DNA of 39,503 nucleotides from a virus. Lineage: Duplodnaviria; Heunggongvirae; Uroviricota; Caudoviricetes. Position 1 is the stretch's first letter. Every line of letters starts with the position of its first letter. A program made the translations under genes and the position numbers. The stretch is from the IMG/VR virus record IMGVR_UViG_2718218309_000001; one strand, given 5' to 3'. Below, one piece after another: positions 2,275 through 39,464 of the stretch. The notes beneath the pieces are model-generated. The model had not been told where the DNA came from and made no database searches. It saw only the letters and a program-made list of their open reading frames with translations.

Positions 2275-3546
2275 TTAGGCTACCAGAGCATTTGATCTTT
2301 GAGCTTGAACGTAATCACTCCACCATTGCATCAAACTCTGTCGCTCTATCAGATATTCTGCACGATTGTATGCTGCGATAATTTCATCTTTTTTCGAGTG
2401 GGCAAGCGCTGCCTCAAGAACTTCAGCTCTGAATTTACCAGACTCCTCTGCCGCTGTTCGTGCAATAGAACGCATACCGTGAGCTACAAGCTCGCCTCCG
2501 AACCCCATTCGGATGATAGCTGCGTTGGCTGTTTGTTCATGCATATGATTAAGAGGCGCTTTTATGCTGGGGAAAACCCATTCTCTATGCCCACTTATTG
2601 ATTTCATTAATTCAAGGATGCGCAAAGCTTCTTTACTCAAAGGAACTTTGTGAAGCTTTTTCATTTTCATGAAATCAGCAGGAATGTTCCAAATGCTGTT
2701 GGTTGTATCAATATCAGACCACCTTGCGCGAACGGCTTCACCCGGACGAACCCATGTCAACAATTGCCATTCAATTAGCATACGTGTTTCCAACCGGATT
2801 GACGCATTCGTCAAAGATTCCATAAACCTTGGCAATTCGCTTGGGGGAAGGGCAGGCATATTTTGCTTTTTTGGTTTACTGAATCTTTGACCAAGGTTGT
2901 CAGCCGGGTTGAACTCAATAAGTTCTTCAGTAGCTGCCCACCGGAAGATTTCATTCAGACGTGAAATGATACGGCGTAGAGTTTCCAATACGCCTCGTTG
3001 CTCAATAGGATCAAGGTGTTGTTTTAAGAGCTTAGGTCGGATCTCATTGATAGGGACATTACCCAGACCGGGAAAGACATTTCTCTCTAAGCTGCGCCAG
3101 ATGTCTGCTGCATGGTCTTGTGAGATACCTGATGTCTTTACCTTCTCATCTAACCATTTCCGCGCTACGGCTTGGAGAGTGTGCTCAGTAGCACTCTTTA
3201 ATGCCTTCGCCTTATCGTTGTTATGGATTTGGGGATCAACACCATTTGCCAGAAAGGAGAGATATTCATCACGTAAGGCTCTGGCTCTTGCAAGGGTAAG
3301 GTGAGGATATGTCCCAAGGCTCATTTTGGTTCTTTTCTTGCTCACTGGTACTGCATACCTGAAATACCAATTTTTCTTGCCTCCTTTCGCCAAAGGAGCG
3401 ATTCGTAGAATCAGACCATCACCGTCAAACAAGTTGATTTCTTTATCGGCTGGCTTGGTGCTTTTGATTTCAGTGTCAGTGAGCTTCTTAGCGATTTTTG
3501 CCATTTTGGGACCCTCGGTTTTTGGACCCTTCTTAGTGGGTCCCAT
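2275..3546 (-). CDS. int: P4-family tyrosine integrase (CP4-57 IntA-like); true start probably the internal Met (MAKIAKKLTDTEIK, near 3504)
   Basis: N-terminal TDTEIKSTKP...DGDGL...WYFRY motif block typical of P4-type integrases; C-terminal catalytic region with R...H..R..Y-type residues (HGMRS, AHS...YNRAEY); adjacent to att copy. Confidence 0.9.
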   Translation of the reverse strand: MGPTKKGPKTEGPKMAKIAKKLTDTEIKSTKPADKEINLFDGDGLILRIAPLAKGGKKNWYFRYAVPVSKKRTKMSLGTYPHLTLARARALRDEYLSFLANGVDPQIHNNDKAKALKSATEHTLQAVARKWLDEKVKTSGISQDHAADIWRSLERNVFPGLGNVPINEIRPKLLKQHLDPIEQRGVLETLRRIISRLNEIFRWAATEELIEFNPADNLGQRFSKPKKQNMPALPPSELPRFMESLTNASIRLETRMLIEWQLLTWVRPGEAVRARWSDIDTTNSIWNIPADFMKMKKLHKVPLSKEALRILELMKSISGHREWVFPSIKAPLNHMHEQTANAAIIRMGFGGELVAHGMRSIARTAAEESGKFRAEVLEAALAHSKKDEIIAAYNRAEYLIERQSLMQWWSDYVQAQRSNALVA

Positions 3547-3669: not shown

Positions 3670-3714
3670 TGGTGGAGCTGGCGGGAGTTGAACCCGCGTC
3701 CGAAATTCCTACAT
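3670..3714. repeat. 45-bp direct repeat of the ssrA 3' end (att core copy; junction between prophage and P4-like island)
   Basis: tggtggagctggcgggagttgaacccgcgtccgaaattcctacat is identical to 39102-39146 (the 3' end of ssrA); sequences diverge immediately outside. Confidence 0.9.
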
Positions 3715-3827: not shown

Positions 3828-5021
3828 TCACTTCTTGTCTTCGATAGAACCGTATTCAAGAAGGTTGTCCATACACTTCTCTAACCTATAGAAATCTGTC
3901 AAAGGATAGAGATTGACAATGTTGTCATCAAAACTTTGCATACCTGATAAACGTTCTTTCCTTCTTAAGAATCTTGAGGCAGACCTAACACCATCATCCT
4001 CACTTGGTTCACAGGAATAATCTAGAGTTTTTAGTACCTGCCATGAAACGGGGGGAGTAAGCTTGAACATTTTTACTAGCTTAGGACAGAAATCTTTTGT
4101 TATGGTTTGCTGATATGTAACTTTAGGTGGAAGAACAACGTTAATAGATTTATCACCATGGTTTGTTTTAATCATTCTTGTCGATCTGTATGCAATTCCG
4201 ACAATGTTTGATTTATTTCTACGACTAATCCATTGCATTAATAAATTTGGGATTATATATTCCTGAGTGAAAGATGTGCTGCCGTTAATCTTTGCAAAAC
4301 TACAAGCGTAAATTAGTGGCATTAAACAAATGTAAGACATCTTTGTGATGTATGACATTTTGTCATTATCAATCTTACCATAGAAACGTGAGTAGAGGAT
4401 TTCCGAAGTGAAATCTAATATTTTGGAATTTTCTTCACTGGATATAAAAGAAGATATATATAACTTATCAAAATCAGGTTTATCCATTTCAAGCCAACAT
4501 ACATATAGGGATGAGCCTAAATATAAACAGGGTAGACCTGCAACCGAGTATCTTTGGGCATTTACCAAGTGCCTTTTAGAGAATGGTATATGAAAGATTT
4601 CATTTCTATTTTTTACTGCTGTATCAGATTTTCTAACCCTGAATAAAGGTCTTGAAGAATTGCAAATATTCTCTAAGGGGATTGATATTTTCTGGATGTA
4701 GTTAGCTGTGAATCGATCAGAAAATGTTCTGTCGAAAGTATCATATGAGGACTTGATATCACCTGATAAAAAATATTCCAAAGAGCTTACAACGCCAAAG
4801 TATATTCTTGTTATTCTATCAAGTTTAGAACTCAATCTACGAGATAATTCATTGTCATTATCTTCTATGTAGTCATTTAAAGTATTAAAGTAAATTTCAC
4901 ATTTATTTTTAAAATCATTAATAATGTCGGTCTTAACAGTGAAAGGGAGTTTTAAATCTCCCGTCTTTATAAGGCTTTCAAATAAAAAATTAAAATCATC
5001 ATGTATATTTTCGGTTTCCAT
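3828..5021 (-). CDS. RES-domain-like protein (397 aa), candidate NAD+-targeting toxin/effector
   Basis: Motif block PLFRVR...QRYSVAGLPCLYLGSSLYVCWLE (aa about 125-179) matches the RES signature (Arg ... G.P.LYL.SS ... E) known from RES-Xre toxins; very AT-rich; second gene of an operon downstream of int. Confidence 0.55.
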   Translation of the reverse strand: METENIHDDFNFLFESLIKTGDLKLPFTVKTDIINDFKNKCEIYFNTLNDYIEDNDNELSRRLSSKLDRITRIYFGVVSSLEYFLSGDIKSSYDTFDRTFSDRFTANYIQKISIPLENICNSSRPLFRVRKSDTAVKNRNEIFHIPFSKRHLVNAQRYSVAGLPCLYLGSSLYVCWLEMDKPDFDKLYISSFISSEENSKILDFTSEILYSRFYGKIDNDKMSYITKMSYICLMPLIYACSFAKINGSTSFTQEYIIPNLLMQWISRRNKSNIVGIAYRSTRMIKTNHGDKSINVVLPPKVTYQQTITKDFCPKLVKMFKLTPPVSWQVLKTLDYSCEPSEDDGVRSASRFLRRKERLSGMQSFDDNIVNLYPLTDFYRLEKCMDNLLEYGSIEDKK

Positions 5022-5075: not shown

Positions 5076-6203
5076 TCATTCCAAATGATCTGCCGCCGCT
5101 TTGCCGCCAAGGATTTTCATATAAGGAGGCTTAGCATAAACCTCCTTGGTCTGCTGGAAAGTGGTTTTGGAGAATCTTCTTTCTTCTGATTGTAAATATT
5201 TTAGCAGACGTTGATATTTGTTTTCTAATATTTGACTATTCCCAGCCAGATCGTAAATATCGCAGGTTATGTTATAAAGCCAATAAACTACGGCTTTGAT
5301 TTCAGGCTCTGAGAAATAGGTTGTGTTAAATACATATTCATTATTATGATTGTAAATGTAGGAGTGTTTCCTTTGTATAGTGTTAACCTTAAGTAGCTTC
5401 ATAAGGTTGATAATTTTAAGGTCAATAGAAATTAAAGAAATTATCTCTGACTTCAAATCACCCTTTTTGATACCAATAATTTCTTTATCAAGTTCATTCC
5501 AGGCATTTATGATTTTTTGCGTGAATTTTGGGGAAGGGCTATAAATTGCACCAGTATTTTGTGAAGATTGAAATAAATTATTATAAAGCTTATGAGGAAA
5601 TACAATTTTCACTTCGTAAGTATTTACTTTTTCACTTGATTCTATATAAGCATGGCTAGCCACTTCAGCAGCCACATGCCTTGTTCGATCAGTCTGCGTG
5701 GGGATATATTCAAGAACCAAAGTAGGGAATGAACTAATCGTTTCGATAAATAGTTTTAAATGAGAGTAATAAGCGTCTGCATTGTTTTTAACTTTAGCTG
5801 ATTGTATCTGTGATTCAGTTTGAATGGTTCTATGAATATTATTTACTATTGAAGCCAGTGGCACTGATGAAGCTAATAATAGCAACGGAAGTTTACTAAT
5901 ATTAAGAAAATTTGCAAACCCGTCGGTTGTCAGTTGTAAACTATGATCTCTCCAAACCCAGCAACCGAATAAAATAAAATAGTAAAATGGTAATAAGATA
6001 GAAGCTATAAACAAAGGTTGTTTGAATAAATTATTGTCATTTAACTCAAACCACCCGTAAAAATAAAACAGTCCTATTGTTATAAATAATGAGGTTATTG
6101 CCACCGTTAAGAACATTACCTCAAAACCATAATATATTGTAAAAGTATTTGCAACTATGGATAGTAAGAGCAAAAAAGTTAAAGTGATAATTTTATTTTT
6201 CAT
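5076..6203 (-). CDS. Hypothetical membrane protein (375 aa): about 4 N-terminal TM helices plus about 280-aa soluble C-terminal domain
   Basis: Hydrophobic segments in the first 90 aa; start ATG (6203-6201) overlaps the int stop codon (TGA 6202-6200), i.e. ATGA translational coupling with int; AT-rich. Confidence 0.6.
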   Translation of the reverse strand: MKNKIITLTFLLLLSIVANTFTIYYGFEVMFLTVAITSLFITIGLFYFYGWFELNDNNLFKQPLFIASILLPFYYFILFGCWVWRDHSLQLTTDGFANFLNISKLPLLLLASSVPLASIVNNIHRTIQTESQIQSAKVKNNADAYYSHLKLFIETISSFPTLVLEYIPTQTDRTRHVAAEVASHAYIESSEKVNTYEVKIVFPHKLYNNLFQSSQNTGAIYSPSPKFTQKIINAWNELDKEIIGIKKGDLKSEIISLISIDLKIINLMKLLKVNTIQRKHSYIYNHNNEYVFNTTYFSEPEIKAVVYWLYNITCDIYDLAGNSQILENKYQRLLKYLQSEERRFSKTTFQQTKEVYAKPPYMKILGGKAAADHLE

Positions 6204-14284: not shown

Positions 14285-14896
14285 ATGGATTTAGTCTTTA
14301 AAATTCTGGCTTCGTTGGGTGGGGTGTCTTTTGTTGCATCTGGCATATTTGTTTGGATCGGGAAAGTTTATTTAGAAAGATATAAGTCGCGGCTAAACAA
14401 AGATATTGCTGAATTTCAATCACAACTGAGTGCAACTAATGAAAGAATAAAGGCTAAGTTAGACAATTCTGTTTATGTAACGAAAGCGTATTTTGATAAG
14501 GAGTTATCAGCATATAGTCTCATTTGGAATTCGATGTTTGAAACCAGAGAAAGCGTGCTTAAGCTGAGGCCTGCGCTGGATCATTTTGACCCCAACGAAC
14601 CATTTGAAGAGAGAAAATTTAGAAGGTTGAAAGTTTTTTTCGATGCATTTAATACTTTTGTTACAAGTGTTGAGTCTAACAAACCGTTCATCTCACCAGA
14701 GGTTTATATAATCTTGGACCGTTTCCGGAAGGAATGCTTTTCAGAGTCAATATCGTTTCAGCATGGCGATCCAGAATTTGACTGGCAAAATTATTGGAAA
14801 GAGGCAGAGTTGAATCGTACAACCATCACCAAGCTTTTTGATGAGACGTGTGATGCAATTCGAGACAGGATGCACACATTAACTGTGGTTACGTAG
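14285..14896 (+). CDS. Hypothetical membrane-anchored protein (203 aa; N-terminal TM helix plus helical cytoplasmic domain); hotspot cargo at the tin/old position
   Basis: N-terminal hydrophobic segment ILASLGGVSFVASGIFVWIG; AT-rich; lies between gene A and cos where P2 carries the anti-phage genes tin and old. Confidence 0.6.
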   Translation: MDLVFKILASLGGVSFVASGIFVWIGKVYLERYKSRLNKDIAEFQSQLSATNERIKAKLDNSVYVTKAYFDKELSAYSLIWNSMFETRESVLKLRPALDHFDPNEPFEERKFRRLKVFFDAFNTFVTSVESNKPFISPEVYIILDRFRKECFSESISFQHGDPEFDWQNYWKEAELNRTTITKLFDETCDAIRDRMHTLTVVT

Positions 14897-14987
14897 TTTT
14901 CCAAAAAGTCTCGATGCCCGCTTTGGCGATTGTGCATGTCTATGCCGCATGAATCCGCATGATCGTTTGAGGATCGTTTTAGCTGAG

Positions 14988-15011
14988 GCCCGCTAGGAAT
15001 GGCGGGCTTTT
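14988..15011 (+). terminator. Rho-independent terminator (GCCCGC-loop-GCGGGC followed by TTTT)
   Basis: Perfect 6-bp GC stem with 8-nt loop and T tract downstream of ORF 14285-14896. Confidence 0.45.
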
Positions 15012-15056
15012 GCTTATGTCATGCAGACGCATGAAAACCACTACATAAAGCGGGCA

Positions 15057-15075
15057 GGCGTGGCGGGGATACGAG
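15057..15075. other. cos site (cohesive-end sequence) of the P2/186-type prophage
   Basis: GGCGTGGCGGGGATACGAG closely matches the 19-nt cohesive ends of 186 (GGCGTGGCGGGGAAAGCAT) and P2 (GGCGAGGCGGGGAAAGCAC), recalled from memory. Confidence 0.55.
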
Positions 15076-15185
15076 CGCGCGCTCATGGTTGAATTAATGA
15101 AATTATGGTGTTAAATAGGCTAGCTTTTTAAGTCGTGAATATTCAATTTTTCAACTCATTTTTTTCATAGGGAGGAGTAATTGAC

Positions 15186-15884
15186 ATGGTTATGTTAGTG
15201 GATGACTGTCCACGATGTGGATCACAAAAAATAGCGTTTGATGTTAATGGGCTGAATTGCACTAGGGTTTACAATGCATTGGGCGGGGGTAAAACATACG
15301 AGTACGAGGTCTATTGTGTTTGCCGAGAGTGTCATAAAACGACAATGTTTCTTTGCAGACCTTTAACGAAAAATAAAACTTTAGATGGCTATAATTGGGA
15401 AAGTGGAATATTCGGCTTAAAGGAAGTTGCAGAGGTTGTTAGGCCTATATCACCGGCAGACTTAGCAGTAGAGGAGCCACCAGAGTTCTTACCTGAGCAT
15501 ATCAATAGTACATATGAGGAAGGGGCGAAATGTTTGGCTATAGGTTGTTATAATGCAGCAGCAACCATGTTTAGGCTTTGCCTTGATTATGCCACAAAAG
15601 GACTTCTTCCTGATGGGGAGCAAGGGCCTGCGCAAAAAATAAGGAGAAGCCTAGGGTTAAGAATGGAGTGGTTATTTGATAATCATCTACTGCCTGAAGC
15701 TTTAAGGGAACTAGCTGAATGCGTTAAAGATGACGGAAATGATGGAGCGCATGAAGGTATTTTGGATAAAGCTGCTGCTGAGGATCTTGAAGATTTTACC
15801 TATCTTTTTTTAGAACGGCTTTACACTGAACCTCAACGCCTTATCGAAGCCAAGACAAGGCGTGAACAAAGAAGAAACAAATAA
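15186..15884 (+). CDS. Hypothetical Zn-ribbon protein (232 aa): N-terminal CPRCG...CRECH plus C-terminal helical domain; cargo between cos and Q
   Basis: Cx2C-N30-Cx2C at the N-terminus; GGAGGAG RBS; AT-rich; stop is only 8 bp from the Q stop. Confidence 0.65.
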   Translation: MVMLVDDCPRCGSQKIAFDVNGLNCTRVYNALGGGKTYEYEVYCVCRECHKTTMFLCRPLTKNKTLDGYNWESGIFGLKEVAEVVRPISPADLAVEEPPEFLPEHINSTYEEGAKCLAIGCYNAAATMFRLCLDYATKGLLPDGEQGPAQKIRRSLGLRMEWLFDNHLLPEALRELAECVKDDGNDGAHEGILDKAAAEDLEDFTYLFLERLYTEPQRLIEAKTRREQRRNK

Positions 15885-21398: not shown

Positions 21399-21493
21399 CA
21401 GAACGTGCCCCCGCGCACGGGCGGCACGGGGTGGCGAAAGGCACTGCCACATCAAAACCCCGTCCACCGCCCTCTATTTCAGGAGAAAGCAGC

Positions 21494-21958
21494 ATGAAGT
21501 TTGTTGCGCCAGAACAGGCACCGGAACAGGCGGAAATCATCAGGAATACACCGTTCTGGCCTGATGTGGACCTGTCGGAGTTTCGCAGCGTGATGCGCAC
21601 TGACGGCACGGTGACGCAGCCGCGTTTAAAGCAGGTTGCGCTGTCGGCAATTTCGGAGGTCAACGCAGAGCTGTATGAGTTTCGCAGACGCCAGCAGATG
21701 CTGGGGTATGCCTCGCTGGCAGAAGTTCCGGCGGAACAGCTGGACGGCAAAAGTGAGCGCATTCAGCACTATTTCAACGCGGTTTACTGCTGGGCACGCG
21801 CCATGCTCAACGAACGATACCAGGACTATGACGCCACGGCGTCCGGTGTGAAGCGGGGCGAGGAACTGGCGGAAGCAAGCGGTGATTTGTGGCGTGACGC
21901 CCGCTGGGCCATCAGCCGGGTGCAGGATGCGCCGCACTGCACAGTGGAGCTTATCTGA
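21494..21958 (+). CDS. L: Head completion/stabilisation protein (P2 gpL)
   Basis: ATG at 21494 preceded by AGGAGAAAG RBS; position after M. Confidence 0.85.
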   Translation: MKFVAPEQAPEQAEIIRNTPFWPDVDLSEFRSVMRTDGTVTQPRLKQVALSAISEVNAELYEFRRRQQMLGYASLAEVPAEQLDGKSERIQHYFNAVYCWARAMLNERYQDYDATASGVKRGEELAEASGDLWRDARWAISRVQDAPHCTVELI

Positions 21959-22161
21959 TGAAAGTGCGTGCGCATCAGTATGACACGGTGGACGCGCTTT
22001 GCTGGCGTCATTACGGGCGCACGCAGGGGGTCACGGAGCAGGTACTGAAGGCAAATCCGGGGCTTGCCGAATACGGCCCCTTTTTACCTCACGGGCTGCA
22101 GGTGGAGCTGCCGGACATTCCGACCACCACCACCGTGCAGACCGTCCAGCTATGGGACTGA
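21958..22161 (+). CDS. X: Tail protein X (P2 gpX)
   Basis: 67-aa ORF whose start overlaps the L stop (TGATG); position as in P2. Confidence 0.8.
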   Translation: MKVRAHQYDTVDALCWRHYGRTQGVTEQVLKANPGLAEYGPFLPHGLQVELPDIPTTTTVQTVQLWD

Positions 22162-22164
22162 ATT

Positions 22165-22380
22165 ATGACGCTTGAGCGAATCAGCGCCTTTATCACGTAT
22201 TGCATCGCCGTCGTGCTGGCCTGGCTGGGCGATTTGTCCATCAAGGATGCCTCAACGCTGGGCGGCCTGATGATTGGTGTACTGATGCTGGCTATCAACT
22301 GGTACTACAAACACAAATCCTACCAGCTTCTGCGCGACGGGCAGATCTCGCGGGAGGACTATGAATCCATCAATCGTTAA
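22165..22380 (+). CDS. Putative holin (71 aa, two TM segments)
   Basis: Two hydrophobic helices and a charged C-terminus; immediately upstream of the endolysin. Confidence 0.65.
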   Translation: MTLERISAFITYCIAVVLAWLGDLSIKDASTLGGLMIGVLMLAINWYYKHKSYQLLRDGQISREDYESINR

Positions 22381-22873
22381 ACGCTGCCTTGTCGGGGCCG
22401 TGCTGGCTATTGCTGCCACGCTGCCGGGTTTTCAGCAGCTTCACACCTCCGTGGAGGGGCTGAAACTGATTGCTGATTACGAAGGCTGTCGTCTGCAGCC
22501 GTATCAGTGCAGCGCGGGTGTCTGGACCGACGGCATTGGTAATACATCGGGCGTCATTCCCGGCAAAACAATCACGGAACGACAGGCAGCAGAAGGGCTG
22601 ATCTCCAACGTGCTGCGTGTGGAGCGGGTACTGGAAAGGTGTGTGAAGCAACTGCCACCACAGAAGGTGTATGACGCTACGGTGTCGTTTGCCTTCAACG
22701 TGGGGACGGGCAATGCCTGCAGCTCCACGCTGGTGAAATTGCTCAATCAGCGGCGCTGGGCGGATGCGTGCCGACAGTTGCCGCGCTGGGTTTATGTAAA
22801 AGGTGTGTTTAATCAGGGGCTGGATAACCGCCGTGCGCGGGAGATGGCCTGGTGTTTACAGGGAGCAAACTGA
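22361..22873 (+). CDS. K: Phage lysozyme/endolysin (P2 gpK-like) with N-terminal hydrophobic signal-anchor (SAR-like) segment
   Basis: Hydrophobic N-terminus KRCLVGAVLAIAATLPGF followed by a lysozyme-like core (EGLKLIADYEGCRLQPY...GVWTDGIGNT). Confidence 0.85.
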   Translation: MNPSIVKRCLVGAVLAIAATLPGFQQLHTSVEGLKLIADYEGCRLQPYQCSAGVWTDGIGNTSGVIPGKTITERQAAEGLISNVLRVERVLERCVKQLPPQKVYDATVSFAFNVGTGNACSSTLVKLLNQRRWADACRQLPRWVYVKGVFNQGLDNRRAREMAWCLQGAN

Positions 22874-22874
22874 A

Positions 22875-23252
22875 ATGAAAAAGAAATTAATCAGCGGACT
22901 GTTTCTGATGTTATGGATGGCGCTGTTAATCGCAGCAATGGTGTATCCGCAGGGGATTTTTCCGGTACTGGCAGCGTCCGGCGTTTGGGTAGCCTGTTTG
23001 CTGACATGGGCGGTAATTCCGGTAGCACTGGCTGCGTTAATTAAGAATGGCCCGCTCTGGCAGGAGTTAAGGGCATCTTTACTGAAGACAATTACCCGAA
23101 AAGAAAACGTATTTATCAGTTGGGTGATGCGATTGCTGATTGTTGTAAGTCTCGCCTGGACGGGGTGGGCTATTACCCTGGTCTTTTATCTACTGACCGT
23201 TATTGCCTTCTGGATCACCCGTAATCAGATGGCGCAACAGGTAGCAGCATGA
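22875..23252 (+). CDS. lysA: Lysis accessory membrane protein (LysA-like, 125 aa, about 4 TM)
   Basis: Highly hydrophobic ORF between endolysin and LysB; ATG at 22875. Confidence 0.55.
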   Translation: MKKKLISGLFLMLWMALLIAAMVYPQGIFPVLAASGVWVACLLTWAVIPVALAALIKNGPLWQELRASLLKTITRKENVFISWVMRLLIVVSLAWTGWAITLVFYLLTVIAFWITRNQMAQQVAA

Positions 23253-23677
23253 ACCGGTTGCTGCTGGTTGTGCTGGCGTTATTACTGGCGGCGCTGGGCT
23301 GGCAGACGTGGCGGCTGGCTGATGCCAGCCAGACCATTAGCACGCAGGCAGACGAGCTGCAGAGCAAAAGCCAGGCACTGGCAAAGAGCAACAGCCAGCT
23401 TATCAGCCTGTCCATTCTGACTGAAACCAATAACCGGGAGCAGGCGCGGCTCTATGCCGAAGCAGAACAGACCAGCGCGCTGCTGAGACAACGACAACAC
23501 CGGATCGAGGAACTGAAACGTGAGAACGAGGATTTACGCCGCTGGGCTGATACTCCTTTGCCTGCTGACATTATCCGGCTGCGGGAACGTCCGACGCTCA
23601 CCGGAGGTGCAGCTTATCGTCAGTGGTTGTCCGCGAGTGACACCGTGTCGGCTGGATCAGGCAGCGCCGCGCACTAA
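23249..23677 (+). CDS. lysB: Rz-like inner-membrane spanin (P2 LysB)
   Basis: N-terminal TM anchor plus coiled-coil periplasmic domain; contains an overlapping out-of-frame lipoprotein ORF. Confidence 0.8.
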   Translation: MNRLLLVVLALLLAALGWQTWRLADASQTISTQADELQSKSQALAKSNSQLISLSILTETNNREQARLYAEAEQTSALLRQRQHRIEELKRENEDLRRWADTPLPADIIRLRERPTLTGGAAYRQWLSASDTVSAGSGSAAH

Positions 23678-23810
23678 CGGTGATCTGAACGCGTTGTTGG
23701 ATGAAACGGAGGCCGCCTGGGCGGTCTGTGCAGACAAAGTGGACATGATTATTGCGTGTCAGGAGCAAAACAGTGAACAAACCACAATCCCTGCGCCACG
23801 CCCTCAATAA
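23520..23810 (+). CDS. lysC: Rz1-like outer-membrane lipoprotein spanin (P2 LysC), overlapping lysB in the +1 frame
   Basis: GTG start; signal peptide with lipobox LTLSGC; Pro-rich mature part. Confidence 0.75.
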   Translation: MRTRIYAAGLILLCLLTLSGCGNVRRSPEVQLIVSGCPRVTPCRLDQAAPRTNGDLNALLDETEAAWAVCADKVDMIIACQEQNSEQTTIPAPRPQ

Positions 23811-24204
23811 AGCTGTGCCTTATGTCCGCAATAACCCGGACAAACTGCATCTGTTTGTGGATAACGGTTCGCTGGTTGCCACGGGGGCCAGCTCCATGTC
23901 GTGGGAGTACCGTTACACCCTGAACGCGGTGATTGAGGATTTCAGCGGCGACCAGAATCTGCTGATGGCCCCGGTTTTGCTGTGGCTGAGGGATAACCAG
24001 CCCGATGCCATCAATAACCCGGCGTTACGGGAAAAACTATTCACCTTTGAGGTGGATATTCTGCGCAACGATGTCTGTGATATCAGCCTGAACCTGCAAC
24101 TGACGGAGCGTGTGCTGGTCAGCACTGACGGTAGTGTGTCGAGTGTTGAAGCTATAGCGGAACCTGATGAACCTGAAGAAATGTGGACGGTGAAACGTGG
24201 CTGA
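23773..24204 (+). CDS. R: Tail completion protein (P2 gpR)
   Basis: Probable GTG start at 23773 with AGGAG RBS 7 nt upstream; position as in P2. Confidence 0.8.
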   Translation: MNKPQSLRHALNKAVPYVRNNPDKLHLFVDNGSLVATGASSMSWEYRYTLNAVIEDFSGDQNLLMAPVLLWLRDNQPDAINNPALREKLFTFEVDILRNDVCDISLNLQLTERVLVSTDGSVSSVEAIAEPDEPEEMWTVKRG

Positions 24205-24643
24205 ACTGCAGAAGGTGGACGACTGGCTGAGTGCCTTGCTGGCGAATCTGGAACCAGCCACGAGAAGCCGCATGATGCGCCAGCTGGCGCAGGAACTGCG
24301 CCGGACACAGCAGCAGAATATCAGGATGCAGCGCAATCCAGATGGCAGCAGTTATGAACCGCGCAGGGTAACAGCACGCAGCAAGAAGGGGCGCATCAAA
24401 CGTCAGATGTTTGCAAAGCTGCGCACCACAAAATACCTGAAAACTGCCGCCAGCACCGACTCTGCCAGCGTGCAGTTTGAAGGCAAGGTGCAGCGCATTG
24501 CCCGCGTTCACCATTACGGCCTGCGAGATCGCGTCAGTCGTAAGGGACCGGAGGTGCGTTACGCAGAGCGTCGCCTTCTGGGTGTAAATGATGATGTTGA
24601 GGCAATGACCCGCGACATGATTCTGCAATGGCTGGCGGGGTGA
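24197..24643 (+). CDS. S: Tail completion / virion morphogenesis protein (P2 gpS)
   Basis: GTG start overlapping R stop; size and position match P2 S. Confidence 0.85.
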   Translation: MAELQKVDDWLSALLANLEPATRSRMMRQLAQELRRTQQQNIRMQRNPDGSSYEPRRVTARSKKGRIKRQMFAKLRTTKYLKTAASTDSASVQFEGKVQRIARVHHYGLRDRVSRKGPEVRYAERRLLGVNDDVEAMTRDMILQWLAG

Positions 24644-24647
24644 TCTT

Positions 24648-24665
24648 TGTATCAGCACTGATACA
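24648..24665. promoter_or_regulatory. Ogr-type late promoter element TGT-N12-ACA (PV)
   Basis: TGTATCAGCACTGATACA (itself palindromic) centred about 55 bp upstream of the V start. Confidence 0.5.
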
Positions 24666-24711
24666 AGTTGCAGCACTGCCGCCTTTCTTCCCCTGATGGC
24701 AACCTTTCCCT

Positions 24712-25290
24712 ATGAACGCACAATTAACCGAAATCATGCGCCTTATCACCAACCTGATCCGCACAGGGGTAGTCACCGAAGTGGACAGGGAAAACTGGCT
24801 TTGCCGGGTGAAAACGGGCGAGCTTGAAACCAACTGGATCAGCTGGCTGACGCTGCGTGCCGGGAATGCCCGTACATGGTGGCGACCATCGGAAGGTGAG
24901 CAGGTGGTGCTGCTGAGTCTGGGCGGCAATCTGGAAACCGCCTTTGCGCTGCCCGCTGTCTATTCGAATCAGTTCGCACCACCGTCGACGTCGGCGGACG
25001 CCTGCGTGACAGAACATCCTGACGGTGGCTGGTTTGAATACGAACCCGCCACCGGGCGCTGGTATGTCAGGGGCATCAAATCAATGGTCATTGAGGCTGC
25101 TGACAACATCACCATGAAAACCAGTGAGTTTGTACTGGAGGCTGACCGCACGCGCATTAACAGCGAAGTGGTGATCAATGGTGGCGTTACCCAGGGCGGC
25201 GGAGCGATGAGTTCTAACGGGATCGTGGTTGATGCGCATCAGCATACTGGCGTCCTGAAAGGCGGCGATACAACCGGAGGCCCGGTATGA
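24712..25290 (+). CDS. V: Baseplate spike/assembly protein (P2 gpV)
   Basis: 192-aa protein in the P2 V position after S and the PV element. Confidence 0.9.
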   Translation: MNAQLTEIMRLITNLIRTGVVTEVDRENWLCRVKTGELETNWISWLTLRAGNARTWWRPSEGEQVVLLSLGGNLETAFALPAVYSNQFAPPSTSADACVTEHPDGGWFEYEPATGRWYVRGIKSMVIEAADNITMKTSEFVLEADRTRINSEVVINGGVTQGGGAMSSNGIVVDAHQHTGVLKGGDTTGGPV

Positions 25291-26541: not shown

Positions 26542-27139
26542 TCTGCTGCCACCGGGTTCAACACCACTGGAGCGCCGACTGGCGCAAACCTGCAGCGGGA
26601 TTTCTGATCTGCAGGTGCCGCTTCGTGACTTGTGGAATCCGGCAACCTGTCCGGTCAGTTTCCTGCCTTATCTCGCCTGGGCGTTCTCTGTGGATCGCTG
26701 GGACGAGGGCTGGACAGAAAGCGTCAAGCGCCAGGTGGTGAAGGATGCTTTTTATATTCATCAGCATAAAGGGACCACCAGTGCCGTGCGGCGGGTGGTG
26801 GAGCCGTTCGGATTCCTGATCCGCATTATTGAGTGGTGGCAGACCGGAGAAACACCGGGCACGTTTCGCCTGGATATCGGCGTGCAGGACCAGGGCATCA
26901 CTGAAGATACCTATCTGGAACTTGAGCGACTGATAAGCGATGCCAAACCATGTAGCCGCCACATGATCGGCATGTCCATCAATCTGCAGACCAGCGGCCC
27001 GCATTGGGTGGGAGCCGCCAGCTATCTTGGCGAAGAAATCACGATCTATCCGTATATCAACGAAACGATTATTTCCGGTGGCACCGCGCATGAAGGCGGG
27101 GCGGTCCATGTTATTGACACAATGAGAGTGAATCCATGA
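26534..27139 (+). CDS. I: Baseplate/tail formation protein (P2 gpI)
   Basis: Position between J and tail fibre H; overlapping starts and stops. Confidence 0.85.
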   Translation: MNSLLPPGSTPLERRLAQTCSGISDLQVPLRDLWNPATCPVSFLPYLAWAFSVDRWDEGWTESVKRQVVKDAFYIHQHKGTTSAVRRVVEPFGFLIRIIEWWQTGETPGTFRLDIGVQDQGITEDTYLELERLISDAKPCSRHMIGMSINLQTSGPHWVGAASYLGEEITIYPYINETIISGGTAHEGGAVHVIDTMRVNP

Positions 27140-28638
27140 GCACAAAATTTTATACCCTGCTGACGGATATTGGCGCGGCGAAACTTGCCAGCGCCGCCGC
27201 GCTCGGTGTGCCGCTAAAAATTACCCATATGGCGGTGGGCGATGGCGGTGGAGTATTGCCAACGCCGGACGCAAAGCAGACGGCACTGGTAAATGAGAAA
27301 CGCCGGGCTGCGCTGAATATGCTTTATATCGACCCGCAGAACAGCAGCCAGATTATTGCCGAACAGGTGATCCCTGAAAACGAGGGCGGTTGGTGGATAC
27401 GTGAAGTGGGCTTGTTTGATGAGTCCGGGGCATTGATTGCCGTGGGCAACTGCCCGGAAAGCTATAAGCCGCAACTGGCTGAAGGTAGCGGGCGCACTCA
27501 GACCGTGCGCATGGTGCTGATTACCAGCAGCACGGACAATATCACCCTGAAAATCGACCCTGCTGTAGTGCTGGCAACCCGCAAGTATGTGGATGACAAG
27601 GCACTGGAGCTGAAGGTTTACGCGGATGATCAGATGGCAAAACATCTTGCCGCACCGGACCCGCATTCACAGTACGCGCCAAAAGCCAGCCCGACATTTA
27701 CCGGAACCCCCAAAGCGCCAACGCCAGCGGCGGGGAATAATACCACGCAGGTTGCGACCACTGCGTTTGTACAGGCGGCACTGACGGCCCTTATTAATGG
27801 TGCGCCAGCCACGCTGGACACGCTGAAAGAAATAGCCGCAGCCATTAACAATGATCCGAATTTCAGTACCACCATTAACAATGCGCTGGCACTAAAAGCA
27901 CCGTTGTCGAGTCCGGCACTCACCGGAACGCCAACAGCCCCCACGGCGGCGCAGTCGGTCAACAATACACAGATTGCCACTACGGCTTTTGTGAAATCGG
28001 CGATTGCAGGAATGGTGGGTTCTGCACCTGCTGCACTGGATACACTGAACGAACTGGCGGCGGCACTGGGGAATGATCCGAACTTTGCCACGACAATGCT
28101 TAATGCGCTGGCAGGTAAACAACCGCTGGACAATACGCTTACCAATTTGAGTGGAAAGGATGTAGCTGGTCTTCTCACATACCTTGGAATAGGAGAAACG
28201 GGAAAATACGACATTCTGCCAGCATCAAGAGGAGGCACTGGAGCGTCAACTATAGCCGGAGCATTGATAAACTTTGGTCTGAGTGATTTAGTGACTGCCG
28301 GATTAGTACAGGTGGAATCTGGTACAGACTTTATTACTGCTAAGATTCCATTTCTGTCAGGTGGTAGCAAGCGATTCCTGATGATACATGCCATCAAGGC
28401 GACAATGCCTGCAAATAATAACGGGTATAACCTTACTGTTACATTCCCGACTGCCTATGATAATGCACCGATACCAATTCTTGGCTCGACCGTAGGGTCG
28501 ACTTCAACAACGGGTGGTACCACAGAGTCAATGAATATTTCATCAGTCACAAAATCGGGTTGCATCATTTCTTCAGCATGGCAAACATGGTCTGAGGGAC
28601 CGGTATATCTTTTAACGATTGGAGGAGTTGCAGCATGA
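27136..28638 (+). CDS. H: Tail fibre protein (P2 gpH); C-terminal part lies inside an invertible segment
   Basis: 500-aa protein with conserved N-terminal MSTKFYTLLTDIGAAKLA; two tandem internal repeats of about 74 aa; AT-richer variable C-terminus after the crossover site at about 28184-28206. Confidence 0.9.
   Translation: MSTKFYTLLTDIGAAKLASAAALGVPLKITHMAVGDGGGVLPTPDAKQTALVNEKRRAALNMLYIDPQNSSQIIAEQVIPENEGGWWIREVGLFDESGALIAVGNCPESYKPQLAEGSGRTQTVRMVLITSSTDNITLKIDPAVVLATRKYVDDKALELKVYADDQMAKHLAAPDPHSQYAPKASPTFTGTPKAPTPAAGNNTTQVATTAFVQAALTALINGAPATLDTLKEIAAAINNDPNFSTTINNALALKAPLSSPALTGTPTAPTAAQSVNNTQIATTAFVKSAIAGMVGSAPAALDTLNELAAALGNDPNFATTMLNALAGKQPLDNTLTNLSGKDVAGLLTYLGIGETGKYDILPASRGGTGASTIAGALINFGLSDLVTAGLVQVESGTDFITAKIPFLSGGSKRFLMIHAIKATMPANNNGYNLTVTFPTAYDNAPIPILGSTVGSTSTTGGTTESMNISSVTKSGCIISSAWQTWSEGPVYLLTIGGVAA
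27685..28128 (+). repeat. Tandem in-frame duplication (2 x about 222 bp) within tail fibre gene H
   Basis: Peptide repeats (P..TGTP.APT.A...NNTQ.ATTAFV...G.APA.LDTL.E.AAA..NDPNF.TT..NALA.K.PL) at aa 184-257 and 258-331. Confidence 0.6.
28184..28206. repeat. Left crossover site of the tail-fibre invertible segment (inverted repeat partner of 29871-29893)
   Basis: TTGGAATAGGAGAAACGGGAAAA versus TTGGTTTGGGAGAAGCGGCAAAA on the opposite strand (18/23 identical); both encode a G.GE.GK-like junction inside tail fibre reading frames. Confidence 0.55.
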
Positions 28639-29021
28639 AATATTATTCACCTTCAATTAATGGATTTCCCGAACAAAAGACTGATGACAGTATTGAGATC
28701 AGTGAAGAGGTCTGGAGAATACTTCTTAGTGAAATTTACTCAGGCCGGGAGTTATTTAACGATGGCGGCGTACCCGCTACCCGTGTGCCGCAACCTACGC
28801 AAGAACAAGTAATTGCAGCCGCAGAAAATGAGCGCCAACGATTGCTGAATTATGCTGATACCGTAATGCTCGACTGGCGTACAGAATTGATGCTGGGTGA
28901 AATCAGCGACGCCAACAGGGCTAAATTGTCGGCGTGGCTGGCTTATAAAAATCAAGTTAAGTCGGTTGATGTGACAACTGACCCTGAGCATGTTAACTGG
29001 CCTGTTCCCCCGGAGGCGTAG
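28635..29021 (+). CDS. G: Tail fibre assembly protein (P2 gpG-like)
   Basis: 128-aa protein after H; conserved Tfa C-terminal motif (...NWPVPPEA). Confidence 0.8.
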   Translation: MKYYSPSINGFPEQKTDDSIEISEEVWRILLSEIYSGRELFNDGGVPATRVPQPTQEQVIAAAENERQRLLNYADTVMLDWRTELMLGEISDANRAKLSAWLAYKNQVKSVDVTTDPEHVNWPVPPEA

Positions 29022-29436
29022 GCCATTCAATATCTGGCGCACTGGAGGTATCAACCAGTTCCAGTGCGTCCAGATAATCCAGCCATAAATTATATTGTTC
29101 CAGCTCGTCACCTTTCAGACGACCAATAGCAGCTTTGCCAGGCCACTGATGGGTATTGATGTAGGTATTGACTTCTGAAACCAAAGATATTTTTTTCATT
29201 TCAGCCGTCAACACCTCATCCTCTTTTGAAGGGGGTGGGGAATTAATCCATACTGGCCGTCCTGAACTGTCAGCGCCAATTTCTTTCCCTTCTGGATGCA
29301 GCCCAAGAAATTGCTCATATGTTTCTCGGTTAATTTCAATAACATCATCTGGAAGCGTTCCCGCATCCTCATATTCTGGAAACAATTCTTGTAGATAAAA
29401 ACTTTTACTTCCGGGTGAAAAGAATACTGAGTTCAT
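28993..29436 (-). CDS. Alternative tail fibre assembly protein (tfa') in inverted orientation
   Basis: 147-aa protein with the same C-terminal motif family (...EWPTPPGEQAS); convergent with G, 3' ends overlap. Confidence 0.75.
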   Translation of the reverse strand: MNSVFFSPGSKSFYLQELFPEYEDAGTLPDDVIEINRETYEQFLGLHPEGKEIGADSSGRPVWINSPPPSKEDEVLTAEMKKISLVSEVNTYINTHQWPGKAAIGRLKGDELEQYNLWLDYLDALELVDTSSAPDIEWPTPPGEQAS

Positions 29437-29438
29437 TA

Positions 29439-29933
29439 TTACCGTCCAATGATTAACGCTGAGACGCTGGTATCTGAAGGAAAGGCTGCATTCAGTGGTT
29501 TGTCGACTTTGAATACAATCGTATTATTCCCCCGGACAGCGGCAAAAGAACAAACCGCCGTCGCGTATGAACCTGTAATATTACTGGATACACCACCATA
29601 GGTTGTTGTTGATACCAGAGGGATAACGCCCAGCACCTTATTAGGAAATACAAAGGGCAATGTGGCTGTGGCAATATAAGACTTATTAGAACCTGTGATG
29701 GCATAAGCATTATCAGTCATTCCATTCATCGCCACTGGGCCGCTTATACTTACAGTAACCATCTGAATGATTAGCCCGTCAGGTTGACGAATCACAAAAT
29801 TTCCATTGCCACCAGTAACCGTCCAGAAAGACATATCAGGGATTTGGTTTTCCCCGTTGCCCACATTCCGTTTTGCCGCTTCTCCCAAACCAACGTTTAA
29901 GAAAATGCAGAGGTAACAGCTAACTGGCATCAT
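29439..29933 (-). CDS. Alternative tail fibre C-terminal segment (H'), expressed as a fusion to the H N-terminus after inversion
   Basis: Frame stays open upstream of the listed Met through the right crossover site (…LGEAAKRNV…); Gly/Thr/Ser-rich beta-type composition typical of fibre tips. Confidence 0.7.
   Translation of the reverse strand: MMPVSCYLCIFLNVGLGEAAKRNVGNGENQIPDMSFWTVTGGNGNFVIRQPDGLIIQMVTVSISGPVAMNGMTDNAYAITGSNKSYIATATLPFVFPNKVLGVIPLVSTTTYGGVSSNITGSYATAVCSFAAVRGNNTIVFKVDKPLNAAFPSDTSVSALIIGR
29871..29893. repeat. Right crossover site of the invertible segment (inverted copy of 28184-28206)
   Basis: See left site; about 1.7 kb apart, invertase gene immediately outside. Confidence 0.55.
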
Positions 29934-29960
29934 CTCCGGTTTTTATTCAGGGGGATGATC

Positions 29961-30527
29961 ATGCTTATTGGCTATGTACGCGTGTCAACAAATGACCAGA
30001 ACACCGATTTGCAACGTAATGCACTGAACTGCGCGGGATGTGAGCAGATTTTTGAGGACAAAATCAGTGGCACTAAGTCCGACAGACCGGGGCTGAAAAA
30101 ACTACTCAGGACACTATCGGCAGGAGACACGCTGGTTGTCTGGAAGCTGGACAGGTTGGGGCGCAGTATGCGGCATCTTGTTACGCTGATAGAAGAGTTG
30201 CGCCAGCGTGGTGTGAATTTCAGAAGCCTGACTGACAGTATTGATACCAGTACCCCAATGGGCCGTTTCTTTTTTCATGTCATGGGTGCCCTGGCTGAAA
30301 TGGAACGCGAACTGATAGTTGAACGTACCAGGGCAGGGCTGGCTGCAGCTCGTGCCAAAGGCAGAGTAGGTGGACGCCGTCCTAAGTTGACCACCGAACA
30401 GTGGGCACAGATTGGGCGTTTACTCGAGGCCGGAGAATCAAGACAGCGTATTGCACTGATTTTTGATGTAGGCGTTTCTACCATTTATAGAAAATTTCCG
30501 GCAAATAAGATCAATGAATCCCCCTGA
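29961..30527 (+). CDS. Serine-recombinase DNA invertase (Hin/Gin/Pin/Cin family)
   Basis: MLIGYVRVSTNDQNTDLQ (catalytic Ser motif), ...DTLVVWKLDRLGRS..., C-terminal HTH (GVSTIYRKF); about 188 aa; adjacent to the inverted repeats. Confidence 0.9.
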   Translation: MLIGYVRVSTNDQNTDLQRNALNCAGCEQIFEDKISGTKSDRPGLKKLLRTLSAGDTLVVWKLDRLGRSMRHLVTLIEELRQRGVNFRSLTDSIDTSTPMGRFFFHVMGALAEMERELIVERTRAGLAAARAKGRVGGRRPKLTTEQWAQIGRLLEAGESRQRIALIFDVGVSTIYRKFPANKINESP

Positions 30528-38077: not shown

Positions 38078-38251
38078 ATGGATACAAACGAACTTGGCTT
38101 AGTTAAGGCGCGTGTTGAACTGATCACCGCTATGCTCAAATGCGCAACCGCGTTTGTTGGCTTAGTTGGTGCGGTTTACGCCGTTCTTAACATGGCCTTC
38201 AACTACAACAATTTAACTCATGACAATAGAAGTTCAAAGGTGGGAAGATAA
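38078..38251 (+). CDS. Small single-TM protein (57 aa from ATG 38078; 62 aa from ATG 38063)
   Basis: Strong RBS GGAGGA (38065-38070) 7 nt before ATG 38078; hydrophobic helix CATAFVGLVGAVYAVLNMAF; 3' end overlaps the RT start by about 30 nt. Confidence 0.45.
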   Translation: MDTNELGLVKARVELITAMLKCATAFVGLVGAVYAVLNMAFNYNNLTHDNRSSKVGR

Positions 38252-38993
38252 ATTTGAGATTAAGCCCGGGGTTTGGGTTTATGTCCCAAGCGTTGAGGCA
38301 CGTAAAGTCGGAGGGAAGATACTTCAGGCTGTCAGAAACAAGTGGATTCCGCCACTCTATTTTTACCATCTAAGAACTGGTGGGCATCTTAAAGCTGCCA
38401 GATTACACTTAAAAAGTGATTTTTTTGCCGTTGTTGATATTAAACAATTTTTTCAGTCAACGAGCCGTAGTCGTATCACCCGTGATCTAAAGAGCTACTT
38501 CACCTATTCTCAAGCGCGGGAAATCTCAACATTTTCAACTGTAAGAAACTTGTCCCATAGTCCACATAAGCATGTCCTCCCTTTTGGTTTTGTTCAATCT
38601 CCAATACTTGCAACCCTCTGCTTAGATAAAAGTTATTTTGGTAGCTTACTACGCCGATTGAACAAACATCATGATCTCAAGCTAAGTGTGTTTATGGATG
38701 ATGTGATCATCTCGTCAAACGATTTGGCCCAATTACAAGCGGCTTACGACGAAGCACTAGTGGCAATGCGTAAATCTGGTTATCAAGCCAACATGAGTAA
38801 AACTCAGGCACCATCGTCAAAGATTAGCGTGTTTAATTTAACTTTGAGTAAGGGAGTTATGAAAGTCACATCTCAGAAAATGAGTGACTTCCTGATTGAT
38901 TTCTATTCAAGCAATTATGAGCCGCACAGAATAGGGGTCAAAAACTACGTCGAAGCTGTTAATCCAGGGCAAGCGAAACTCTTTAAGTTGTAA
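38220..38993 (+). CDS. Compact reverse transcriptase (257 aa; fingers/palm only), defence-associated RT candidate
   Basis: RT motifs in order: motif 2 FFAVVDIKQFF (catalytic Asp), motif 4 LPFGFVQSPILATL, motif 5 VFMDDVII (FMDD at 38691-38702), motif 6 YQANMSKT; no obvious thumb, maturase or retron VTG region; AT-rich; between ogr and attR. Confidence 0.8.
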   Translation: MTIEVQRWEDKFEIKPGVWVYVPSVEARKVGGKILQAVRNKWIPPLYFYHLRTGGHLKAARLHLKSDFFAVVDIKQFFQSTSRSRITRDLKSYFTYSQAREISTFSTVRNLSHSPHKHVLPFGFVQSPILATLCLDKSYFGSLLRRLNKHHDLKLSVFMDDVIISSNDLAQLQAAYDEALVAMRKSGYQANMSKTQAPSSKISVFNLTLSKGVMKVTSQKMSDFLIDFYSSNYEPHRIGVKNYVEAVNPGQAKLFKL

Positions 38994-39101: not shown

Positions 39102-39146
39102 TGGTGGAGCTGGCGGGAGTTGAACCCGCGTCCGAAATTCCTACAT
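39102..39146. repeat. 45-bp att core within the ssrA 3' end (direct repeat partner of 3670-3714)
   Basis: Identical 45-mer; this copy is part of the intact tmRNA gene. Confidence 0.9.
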
Positions 39147-39464
39147 CCTCGGTACTACATGCTTAGTCAGTCTTTACATTCGCTTGCCAGCTGCGGACGG
39201 ACACGCCACTAACAAACTAGCCTGATTAAGTTTTAACGCTTCAACCCCAGGCAGGGCTTCCACGCGATCTCTTTTGGGTTTGACCTCTCTTGATCCCCGT
39301 CCTAAGAGCGGAGGCTAGGGAGAGAGGGCTCTAAGCAGGTTATTAAGCTGCTAAAGCGTAGTTTTCGTCGTTTGCGACTATTTTTTGCGGCTTTTTACGA
39401 GGCCAACCGCCCCTCGGCATGCACCTTGGGTTTCGCAAATCCCGTCGAATCCAGAATCAGCCCC
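39102..39464 (-). ncRNA. ssrA: tmRNA (transfer-messenger RNA, SsrA), 363 nt
   Basis: Reverse complement reads GGGGCTGATTCTGGATTCGACGGG...GCAAACGACGAAAACTACGCTTTAGCAGCTTAA (tag peptide ANDENYALAA)...GGTTCAACTCCCGCCAGCTCCACCA, matching the E. coli tmRNA sequence. Confidence 0.97.

Follow-up and report, generated by a model that had tools for sequence, protein, structure and literature searches.

The stretch of DNA analysed here (hereafter, the window) is the 39,503-nt viral record IMGVR_UViG_2718218309_000001, which carries a compact set of host-lysis genes between positions 22165 and 23810. These genes form the late-operon lysis cassette of a P2-family (Peduoviridae) phage of Fels-2/Elveevirus-like type, which very probably works through a pathway of pinholin, signal-anchor-release (SAR) endolysin and two-component spanin. 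Five genes make up the cassette, encoding a holin, an endolysin, a LysA-like membrane protein and the spanins LysB and LysC.

Gene order and family assignment

An earlier note on this DNA, made from the letters alone, had proposed five lysis genes at this location, among them a small holin-like protein with two membrane segments and a LysA-like protein. All five open reading frames (ORFs) were recovered with the boundaries it gave, on the plus strand and tightly packed in the order X-holin-endolysin-lysA-lysB-lysC-R, and both descriptions held: the holin has uncharged stretches at residues 6-22 and 29-48 and passes the PF16080 threshold, and the LysA-like protein belongs to the same family, phrog_162, as LysA of phage P2. 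Curated or remote-homology models give good scores for every one of the genes, and the frames are therefore not chance ORFs.

The holin gene (22165..22380, +; ATG start) encodes a class II protein of 71 aa that scores 37.1 bits against the HP1 holin family PF16080 (cut-off 28.8) and matches phrog_20 with an E-value of 1e-26; HP1 Hol itself matches the same profile at E 9e-10. The endolysin (22361..22873, +; ATG; 170 aa) is a GH24 lysozyme scoring 133.7 bits against PF00959 (cut-off 22.3). For the LysA-like polytopic membrane protein (22875..23252, +; ATG; 125 aa) the match to phrog_162 has an E-value of 8e-44 (2e-67 for P2 LysA), and the score against the DNZ54_00345 family model NF038378 is 123.6 bits (cut-off 40); the direct pairwise similarity to P2 LysA is weak, at 26% identity and E 2e-6 without composition correction. 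The inner-membrane spanin (i-spanin) LysB (23249..23677, +; ATG; 142 aa) reaches 174.2 bits with the phage_LysB equivalog model TIGR03495 (cut-off 92.75) and E 2e-45 with phrog_89. The precursor of LysC, the outer-membrane spanin (o-spanin) lipoprotein (23520..23810, +; GTG; 96 aa), reaches 124.4 bits over residues 5-88 with the P2_Rz1 equivalog model NF038368 (cut-off 27) and E 9e-16 with PF23793.

The junctions between the genes are typical for a translationally coupled phage operon, with 20 nt shared by the holin and endolysin genes and the lysA-like stop codon overlapping the lysB start codon in the tetranucleotide ATGA. A scan of positions 21400-25000 found no promoter-like sites on the plus strand and no convincing terminators within the cassette, and in an Rfam scan of the whole window a tmRNA was the sole RNA match, with none inside the cassette. 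A counterpart of the attenuator annotated in P2 lysC was likewise not found in the promoter, terminator and Rfam scans.

Exchange of the holin-endolysin pair

In P2 the genes Y-K-lysA-lysB-lysC occupy the same order between X and R, and P2 lysC, too, begins within lysB, in the +1 frame, and has its end in R (PMC3091744). Identity to the P2 proteins is 42% for LysC (residues 1-92), 31% for LysB and 26% for LysA. P2 Y, a phrog_175 protein with three membrane segments, and P2 K, which is soluble and lambda R-like, show no relationship to either the holin or the endolysin of the window. The counterparts of these two window proteins are found instead in phage HP1, whose Hol shares both PF16080 and phrog_20 with the window holin, and whose Lys (MSKKFGAMILCSAAAVAAAFFA...NLEGCVRNPYKCPADVWTNGVGNT), 33% identical to the window endolysin, likewise has a hydrophobic N-terminus bearing a Cys and the EGC...C...T motif. 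In HP1 as in the window, the holin gene overlaps the endolysin start and has no dual-start motif (PMC7312051 for HP1). The HP1 record differs in annotating no LysA-like or lysC gene and in having an Rz-like spanin gene, orf25, directly after lys. As judged from these family memberships, holin and endolysin were replaced together by a pair of HP1/P1 type, and LysA, LysB and LysC are of P2 type.

Phages 186 and PSP3 were considered as the closest model and rejected, as both carry the P2 Y/K type and have no counterpart of the window holin and endolysin. Far closer is Klebsiella phage 4LV2017 (Elveevirus), whose DNA is 97.5% identical over positions 21900-24300 and which has the same gene order and families. 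Identities to Salmonella phage Fels-2 (Felsduovirus) are 82% for the holin, 91% for the endolysin, 79% for LysB and 77% for LysC, and the Fels-2 record already mentions "2 transmembrane domains... putative holin" and the likeness of the endolysin to P1 Lyz. Fels-2 differs in carrying a split phrog_7356 gene in the lysA slot, and the start codons given in databases differ from those of the window.

The LysA-like protein

The LysA-like protein has two uncharged stretches, at residues 5-56 and 87-115 (52 and 29 aa), each long enough for a membrane hairpin, and P2 LysA has the same layout. Four 19-mers have favourable transfer energies, the third being marginal at -1.8 kcal/mol, so that four membrane segments are plausible. 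For P2 LysA four segments were predicted with OCTOPUS, and the protein has been described as an antiholin (PMC3091744); the P2 record itself notes on lysA "nonessential; affects timing of lysis". By analogy, the window protein would be an accessory lysis-timing factor.

The distribution of the gene shows it to be accessory. In a scan of viral contigs with the endolysin, which covered relatives 95-100% identical, the lysA-like gene was missing from 17 of the 80 near-identical contigs, with lysB following directly after the endolysin gene there, and it is also absent from Kp ST13phi12.1, the Yersinia phage, ENT90, 186 and PSP3. Its GC content is 48%, compared with 57-61% in the neighbouring genes. 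In Fels-2 (L087, 2515-2890) the slot between endolysin and lysB holds two short ORFs that correspond to the N- and C-terminal parts of phrog_7356 (124 positions); the slot looks like a frameshifted gene, apparently unrelated to LysA and likewise predicted to encode hydrophobic segments. The LysA family is paired with unrelated holins, phrog_175 in P2 and phrog_20 here, which is a poor match to the idea of a holin-specific antiholin.

These observations lend some weight, though clearly not the greater part, to the alternative that the LysA-like protein is not an antiholin at all. On this view it would be a membrane modulator of a generic and exchangeable kind, with membrane energetics or the spanins as examples of its targets, or else the gene would be a passenger that takes no part in lysis. 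The conserved position of the gene between endolysin and lysB, the ATGA overlap of its stop codon with the lysB start and its shared family with P2 lysA, whose mutants alter the timing of lysis (PMC3091744 and the P2 record note), speak against this alternative and for the lysis-timing role. It may also be suggested, quite tentatively, that the endolysin-lysB slot is an exchangeable site for non-homologous small polytopic proteins, and that LysA influences timing without binding a specific holin, for example through membrane energetics, release of the SAR endolysin or the spanins, rather than as a classical antiholin.

The database naming of the family deserves a separate remark. PHROGs labels phrog_162 as "endolysin", and this label has spread to RefSeq phage records, including that of P2 lysA. 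No Pfam match was obtained for the LysA-like protein, and for a small polytopic membrane protein without a Pfam match the label looks wrong.

The holin

The two membrane segments of the holin, assigned by hydropathy to residues 6-22 and 29-48, are followed by a strongly charged C-terminal tail, KHKSYQLLRDGQISREDYESINR. The protein also gives a sub-threshold match to the P21 holin S family and has no match to NCBIfam models; in Escherichia coli A28 PGAP names the corresponding protein "HP1 family phage holin". No second upstream Met was seen in an alignment of phage homologues, so a dual-start antiholin is not indicated. HP1 Hol, the characterised member of the family, kills E. coli without lysis and without leakage of beta-galactosidase, and its deletion blocks phage release; its partner is a Sec-dependent SAR endolysin, and its authors use the term pinholin (PMC7312051). 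Homologues of the window holin occur in 83 phage records and close homologues of the endolysin in 86, with a near-identical taxonomic distribution. Taken together, these data suggest that the window holin is probably a pinholin, producing small lesions without the passage of protein.

Several features nevertheless weigh against this assignment. The first transmembrane domain (TMD1), ISAFITYCIAVVLAWLG, is fairly hydrophobic, with a mean Kyte-Doolittle value of 2.1 and 35% small residues, and pinhole formation is thus not assured. In the phage 21 pinholin the corresponding segment is more SAR-like. Pairwise BLAST between the window holin and HP1 Hol gave no match, the link between them being at the profile level only.

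It is accordingly conceivable, if rather unlikely, that the protein is a canonical large-hole holin producing large non-specific lesions, in which case depolarisation would still activate the SAR endolysin. A TMD1 that is not notably rich in Gly, Ala or Ser and the missing pairwise likeness to HP1 Hol fit such a holin, and P1 Lyz is known to function with a canonical holin as well as with a pinholin (PMC9025707). The balance nonetheless lies with the pinholin, since the protein exceeds the PF16080 cut-off and has at least a sub-threshold match to the P21 pinholin family, falls in phrog_20 alongside the HP1 pinholin, which has been characterised by experiment (PMC7312051), spans only 71 aa with just two membrane segments and, among the homologues inspected, is always adjoined by a SAR-type lysozyme.

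The endolysin and its putative SAR segment

The earlier note had suspected a SAR domain at the N-terminus of the endolysin, a suggestion supported both by a weakly hydrophobic segment and by the identity of the best solved relative, P1 Lyz (1XJT and 1XJU; E 5e-26, 40% identity over 156 columns). It understated its case, given that the endolysin also has the disulfide-switch cysteines of P1 Lyz and that the founder of the holin family has been characterised as a pinholin (PMC7312051). The N-terminus reads MNPSIVKR and then CLVGAVLAIAATLPGF, with an uncharged stretch at residues 9-31 behind the basic K7 and R8. The putative SAR segment, C9-F24 (22385..22432, +), contains 44% Gly, Ala, Ser and Thr and is only weakly hydrophobic: on the Wimley-White octanol scale, the best 19-mer of the endolysin (residues 9-27) gives -2.5 kcal/mol, compared with -9.6 for the LysB anchor and -12.9 for the first membrane segment of LysA.

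The catalytic region contains the motif E41-G-C43-x6-C50-x5-T56 (22481..22528, +), comprising the triad and the caging cysteine, in which E41, C43, C50 and T56 align residue for residue with E42, C44, C51 and T57 of P1 Lyz. The triad of such enzymes is defined as Glu-8X-Asp/Cys-5X-Thr, and until P1 Lyz is activated a disulfide ties up its catalytic Cys (PMC3556154); both P1 Lyz and R21 remain uncleaved and membrane-tethered and are released on depolarisation (PMC6116005). Conservation was judged on seven divergent phage records, the viral-contig relatives being too close for the purpose. In all seven homologues, which include those of Yersinia vB_YenM_06.16-2 and Erwinia ENT90 at 62-65% overall identity, K7-R8-C9 and the E41-C43-C50-T56 motif are invariant. 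By alignment, the endolysin thus has the cysteine set (C9, C43 and C50) of a putative P1 Lyz-type disulfide switch, and it shares with P1 Lyz the triad, a caging Cys two residues past the Glu and a further Cys within the hydrophobic N-terminal stretch. The two enzymes differ in the position of that N-terminal Cys (C13 in P1 Lyz, C9 here), in genomic context and in their partner holins. The first of these differences counts against a simple transfer of the P1 model: C9 lies at the cytoplasmic edge of the SAR segment, P1 C13 aligns with L15 of the window endolysin, and the geometry of isomerisation may therefore differ.

We infer that the endolysin is of the SAR type, exported by Sec without cleavage, tethered, released on depolarisation and activated by disulfide exchange. 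An ordinary Sec signal peptide, removed to leave an enzyme that is free in the periplasm and restrained by other means, is improbable here. The layout of n-region and h-region would suit it, and the equivalent segment of HP1 Lys was called a signal peptide by SignalP (PMC7312051). No small-x-small cleavage motif, however, was found after the hydrophobic core, where the sequence runs P22-G-F-Q-Q-L-H-T-S, and Cys9, which cleavage would discard, is invariant along with C43 and C50; the SAR interpretation is accepted on these two grounds. The homologous P1 Lyz segment, moreover, is not removed by signal peptidase (PMC6116005), and the P1 Lyz chain 1XJT includes that N-terminal segment (alignment from chain residue 11).

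The start codons annotated for related proteins have a bearing on the visibility of this segment. RefSeq places the endolysin start 13 codons (4LV2017, L002) and 11 codons (Fels-2, L087) 3' of the conserved ATG (window 22361-22400). These late starts remove K7-R8-C9 and part of the hydrophobic segment, and consequently the SAR feature is hidden in those proteins.

The spanins LysB and LysC

LysB has a single N-terminal membrane anchor, at residues 3-21, and a periplasmic helical domain. LysC begins with a lipoprotein signal peptide, MRTRIYAAGLILLCLLTLSGC, that ends in the lipobox L18-S19-G20-C21 (23571..23582, +; read from the sequence), and the acylated Cys21 is followed by Gly-Asn; with Gly at position +2, sorting to the outer membrane is expected.

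The first 158 nt of the lysC gene lie within lysB and the remaining 133 nt beyond the lysB stop codon, the last 38 of them inside gene R. The lysB/lysC pair is of the "overlapped" class and not embedded ("nested"). Under the published definitions of spanin architecture, P2 is the textbook overlapped case and lambda Rz/Rz1 the embedded one (PMC6139136, PMC3091744), and Kongari et al. placed Fels-2, RE-2010 and ENT90 in the "P2" family of overlapped o-spanins and the "KS14" family of i-spanins (PMC6139136). The earlier note had called the genes nested in its title and had described LysC as lying in the +1 frame over the 3' part of lysB, from a GTG start and with the lipobox LSGC. The frame ((23520-23249) mod 3 = 1), the 3' overlap, the start and the lipobox are all confirmed; the term nested is not, given the 133 nt beyond lysB.

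An in-frame TGA limits the lysC frame to a single codon ahead of the GTG, which has a GAGG 9 nt upstream. In an alignment of LysC from ten phages the start codon falls in the same column in every one, as GTG in five (the Fels-2 clade) and as ATG in the other five (P2, 186, PSP3, Yersinia and ENT90). Across the same ten, the lipobox, Cys21 and the cysteines at positions 37, 43, 70 and 80 are invariant and none has Asp at +2, with full-length identities of 37-77% between the window LysC and the nine others. That the LysC frame is an untranslated chance ORF may be dismissed, since the absence of an ATG, the downstream start chosen by PGAP and a weak three-base periodicity in the lysC-only stretch (8, 5 and 12 variable sites at codon positions 1, 2 and 3 among 56 distinct related sequences, a signal in the right direction but too weak as evidence by itself) stand against an equivalog score of 124 bits over a cut-off of 27, an upstream GAGG and an end-to-end alignment with nine other phages that keeps the lipobox, five cysteines and the start position.

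In the E. coli A28 prophage, RefSeq/PGAP starts lysC at a CTG, 14 codons downstream, at window position 23562 (L001, 3121-3165), which gives a protein of 82 aa. Started there, LysC lacks the n-region as well as most of the h-region of its lipoprotein signal peptide. The favoured start is the GTG at 23520, as it matches the start of P2 LysC and as the NCBIfam model aligns from residue 5. Many phage records, those of 4LV2017 and the Klebsiella ST-phi phages among them, carry no lysC annotation.

The window LysB contains no cysteine, unlike P2 LysB, and LysC has four conserved periplasmic cysteines. Covalent spanin linkage, if any, would thus lie on the LysC side.

Proposed lysis pathway

The membrane dynamics and disulfide chemistry of the cassette we infer throughout, with P1 Lyz and HP1 Hol as guides. 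The endolysin would be exported by the host Sec machinery, with its weakly hydrophobic N-terminus then tethering it to the inner membrane. In this tethered form it would be inactive, its catalytic Cys50 being locked to Cys43 by a disulfide, as suggested by homology to P1 Lyz. Meanwhile, the 71-aa holin is expected to build up in the inner membrane until, at a set time, it triggers and, on the model of the HP1 holin, forms small lesions that collapse the membrane potential. Depolarisation would allow the N-terminal segment of the endolysin to leave the bilayer, whereupon Cys9 may exchange with the Cys43-Cys50 disulfide, freeing Cys50 so that the cell wall can be degraded.

The last barrier would fall to the spanins. 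LysB in the inner membrane and LysC as an outer-membrane lipoprotein are predicted to assemble into a complex that reaches across the periplasm, which would disrupt or fuse the outer membrane after loss of the wall. As in P2, the LysA-like protein would adjust the timing of lysis without being essential to it.

The prophage and its other genes

The cassette resides in a P2-family prophage of about 35.4 kb inserted at ssrA. A perfect direct repeat of 45 bp, identical to the 3' end of ssrA, flanks the element at 3670-3714 and 39102-39146, which sets its length and its site of integration; the ssrA tmRNA gene itself occupies 39102-39464 on the minus strand. Another integrase gene (2275-3546, -) sits just beyond the left repeat, an arrangement suggestive of tandem islands at the ssrA site.

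On its left, the cassette is bordered by the tail gene X (21958..22161, +; PF05489 Phage_tail_X, E 2e-34), which lies outside the lysis set and whose product is 61% identical to P2 gpX. On its right follows the tail completion gene R (23773..24204, +; PF06891 P2_Phage_GpR, E 6e-47), for which PGAP gives identical coordinates.

Several regions of the prophage appear to carry cargo. Two ORFs, 3828-5021 (-; 397 aa) and 5076-6203 (-; 375 aa), occupy the interval from the left attachment site to the integrase gene, the second extending over the integrase stop by 4 nt. No match in Pfam or PADLOC was obtained for either. Defence genes are often found at this position in P2-like phages. A second cargo region (14285-15884, +), flanked by the replication region and the portal gene, contains a 203-aa ORF with no family match and a DUF4145 protein with a weak PADLOC match to PD-T7-4 (E 1e-6). 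Left of about position 14930 the window diverges completely from E. coli A28. A 257-aa protein with a reverse transcriptase domain (PF00078) is encoded at 38220-38993 (+), in the interval that separates ogr from the right attachment site; PADLOC matches it best to retron reverse transcriptase type VI (E 7e-18), for which it is short, and the whole-window Rfam scan found no RNA beside it. This gene may be defence cargo or a remnant.

The tail-fibre region (27136-30527) comprises the fibre gene H, opposed assembly genes at 28635-29021 (+) and 28993-29436 (-), an inverted alternative fibre C-terminus at 29439-29933 (-) and a Hin/Cin-type serine invertase at 29955-30527. It looks like an invertible host-range switch, and positions 28198-29877 differ between the window and E. 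coli A28.

Prevalence and implications

A 2.4-kb stretch covering the cassette matches 1,057 of 5,426 complete E. coli genomes and is at least 95% identical in 964 records. In E. coli A28 the identity is 99.8%, and besides the holin PGAP there names the products "lysozyme", "DNZ54_00345 family protein", "LysB" and "LysC". The cassette is thus an already known and ordinary one, with every part in a described family and no departure from known systems; with a textbook pathway and a presence in roughly one-fifth of complete E. coli genomes, it has little value as a discovery.

Its use lies rather in annotation and in what it exemplifies. The likely starts are GTG at 23520 for lysC, not the CTG chosen by PGAP, and ATG at 22361 for the endolysin, and the PHROG label "endolysin" on the LysA family appears to be wrong. 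Beyond these corrections, the cassette offers a clean case of module exchange in P2-like phages, in which a holin and SAR endolysin of apparent HP1 type are joined to spanins of P2 type.

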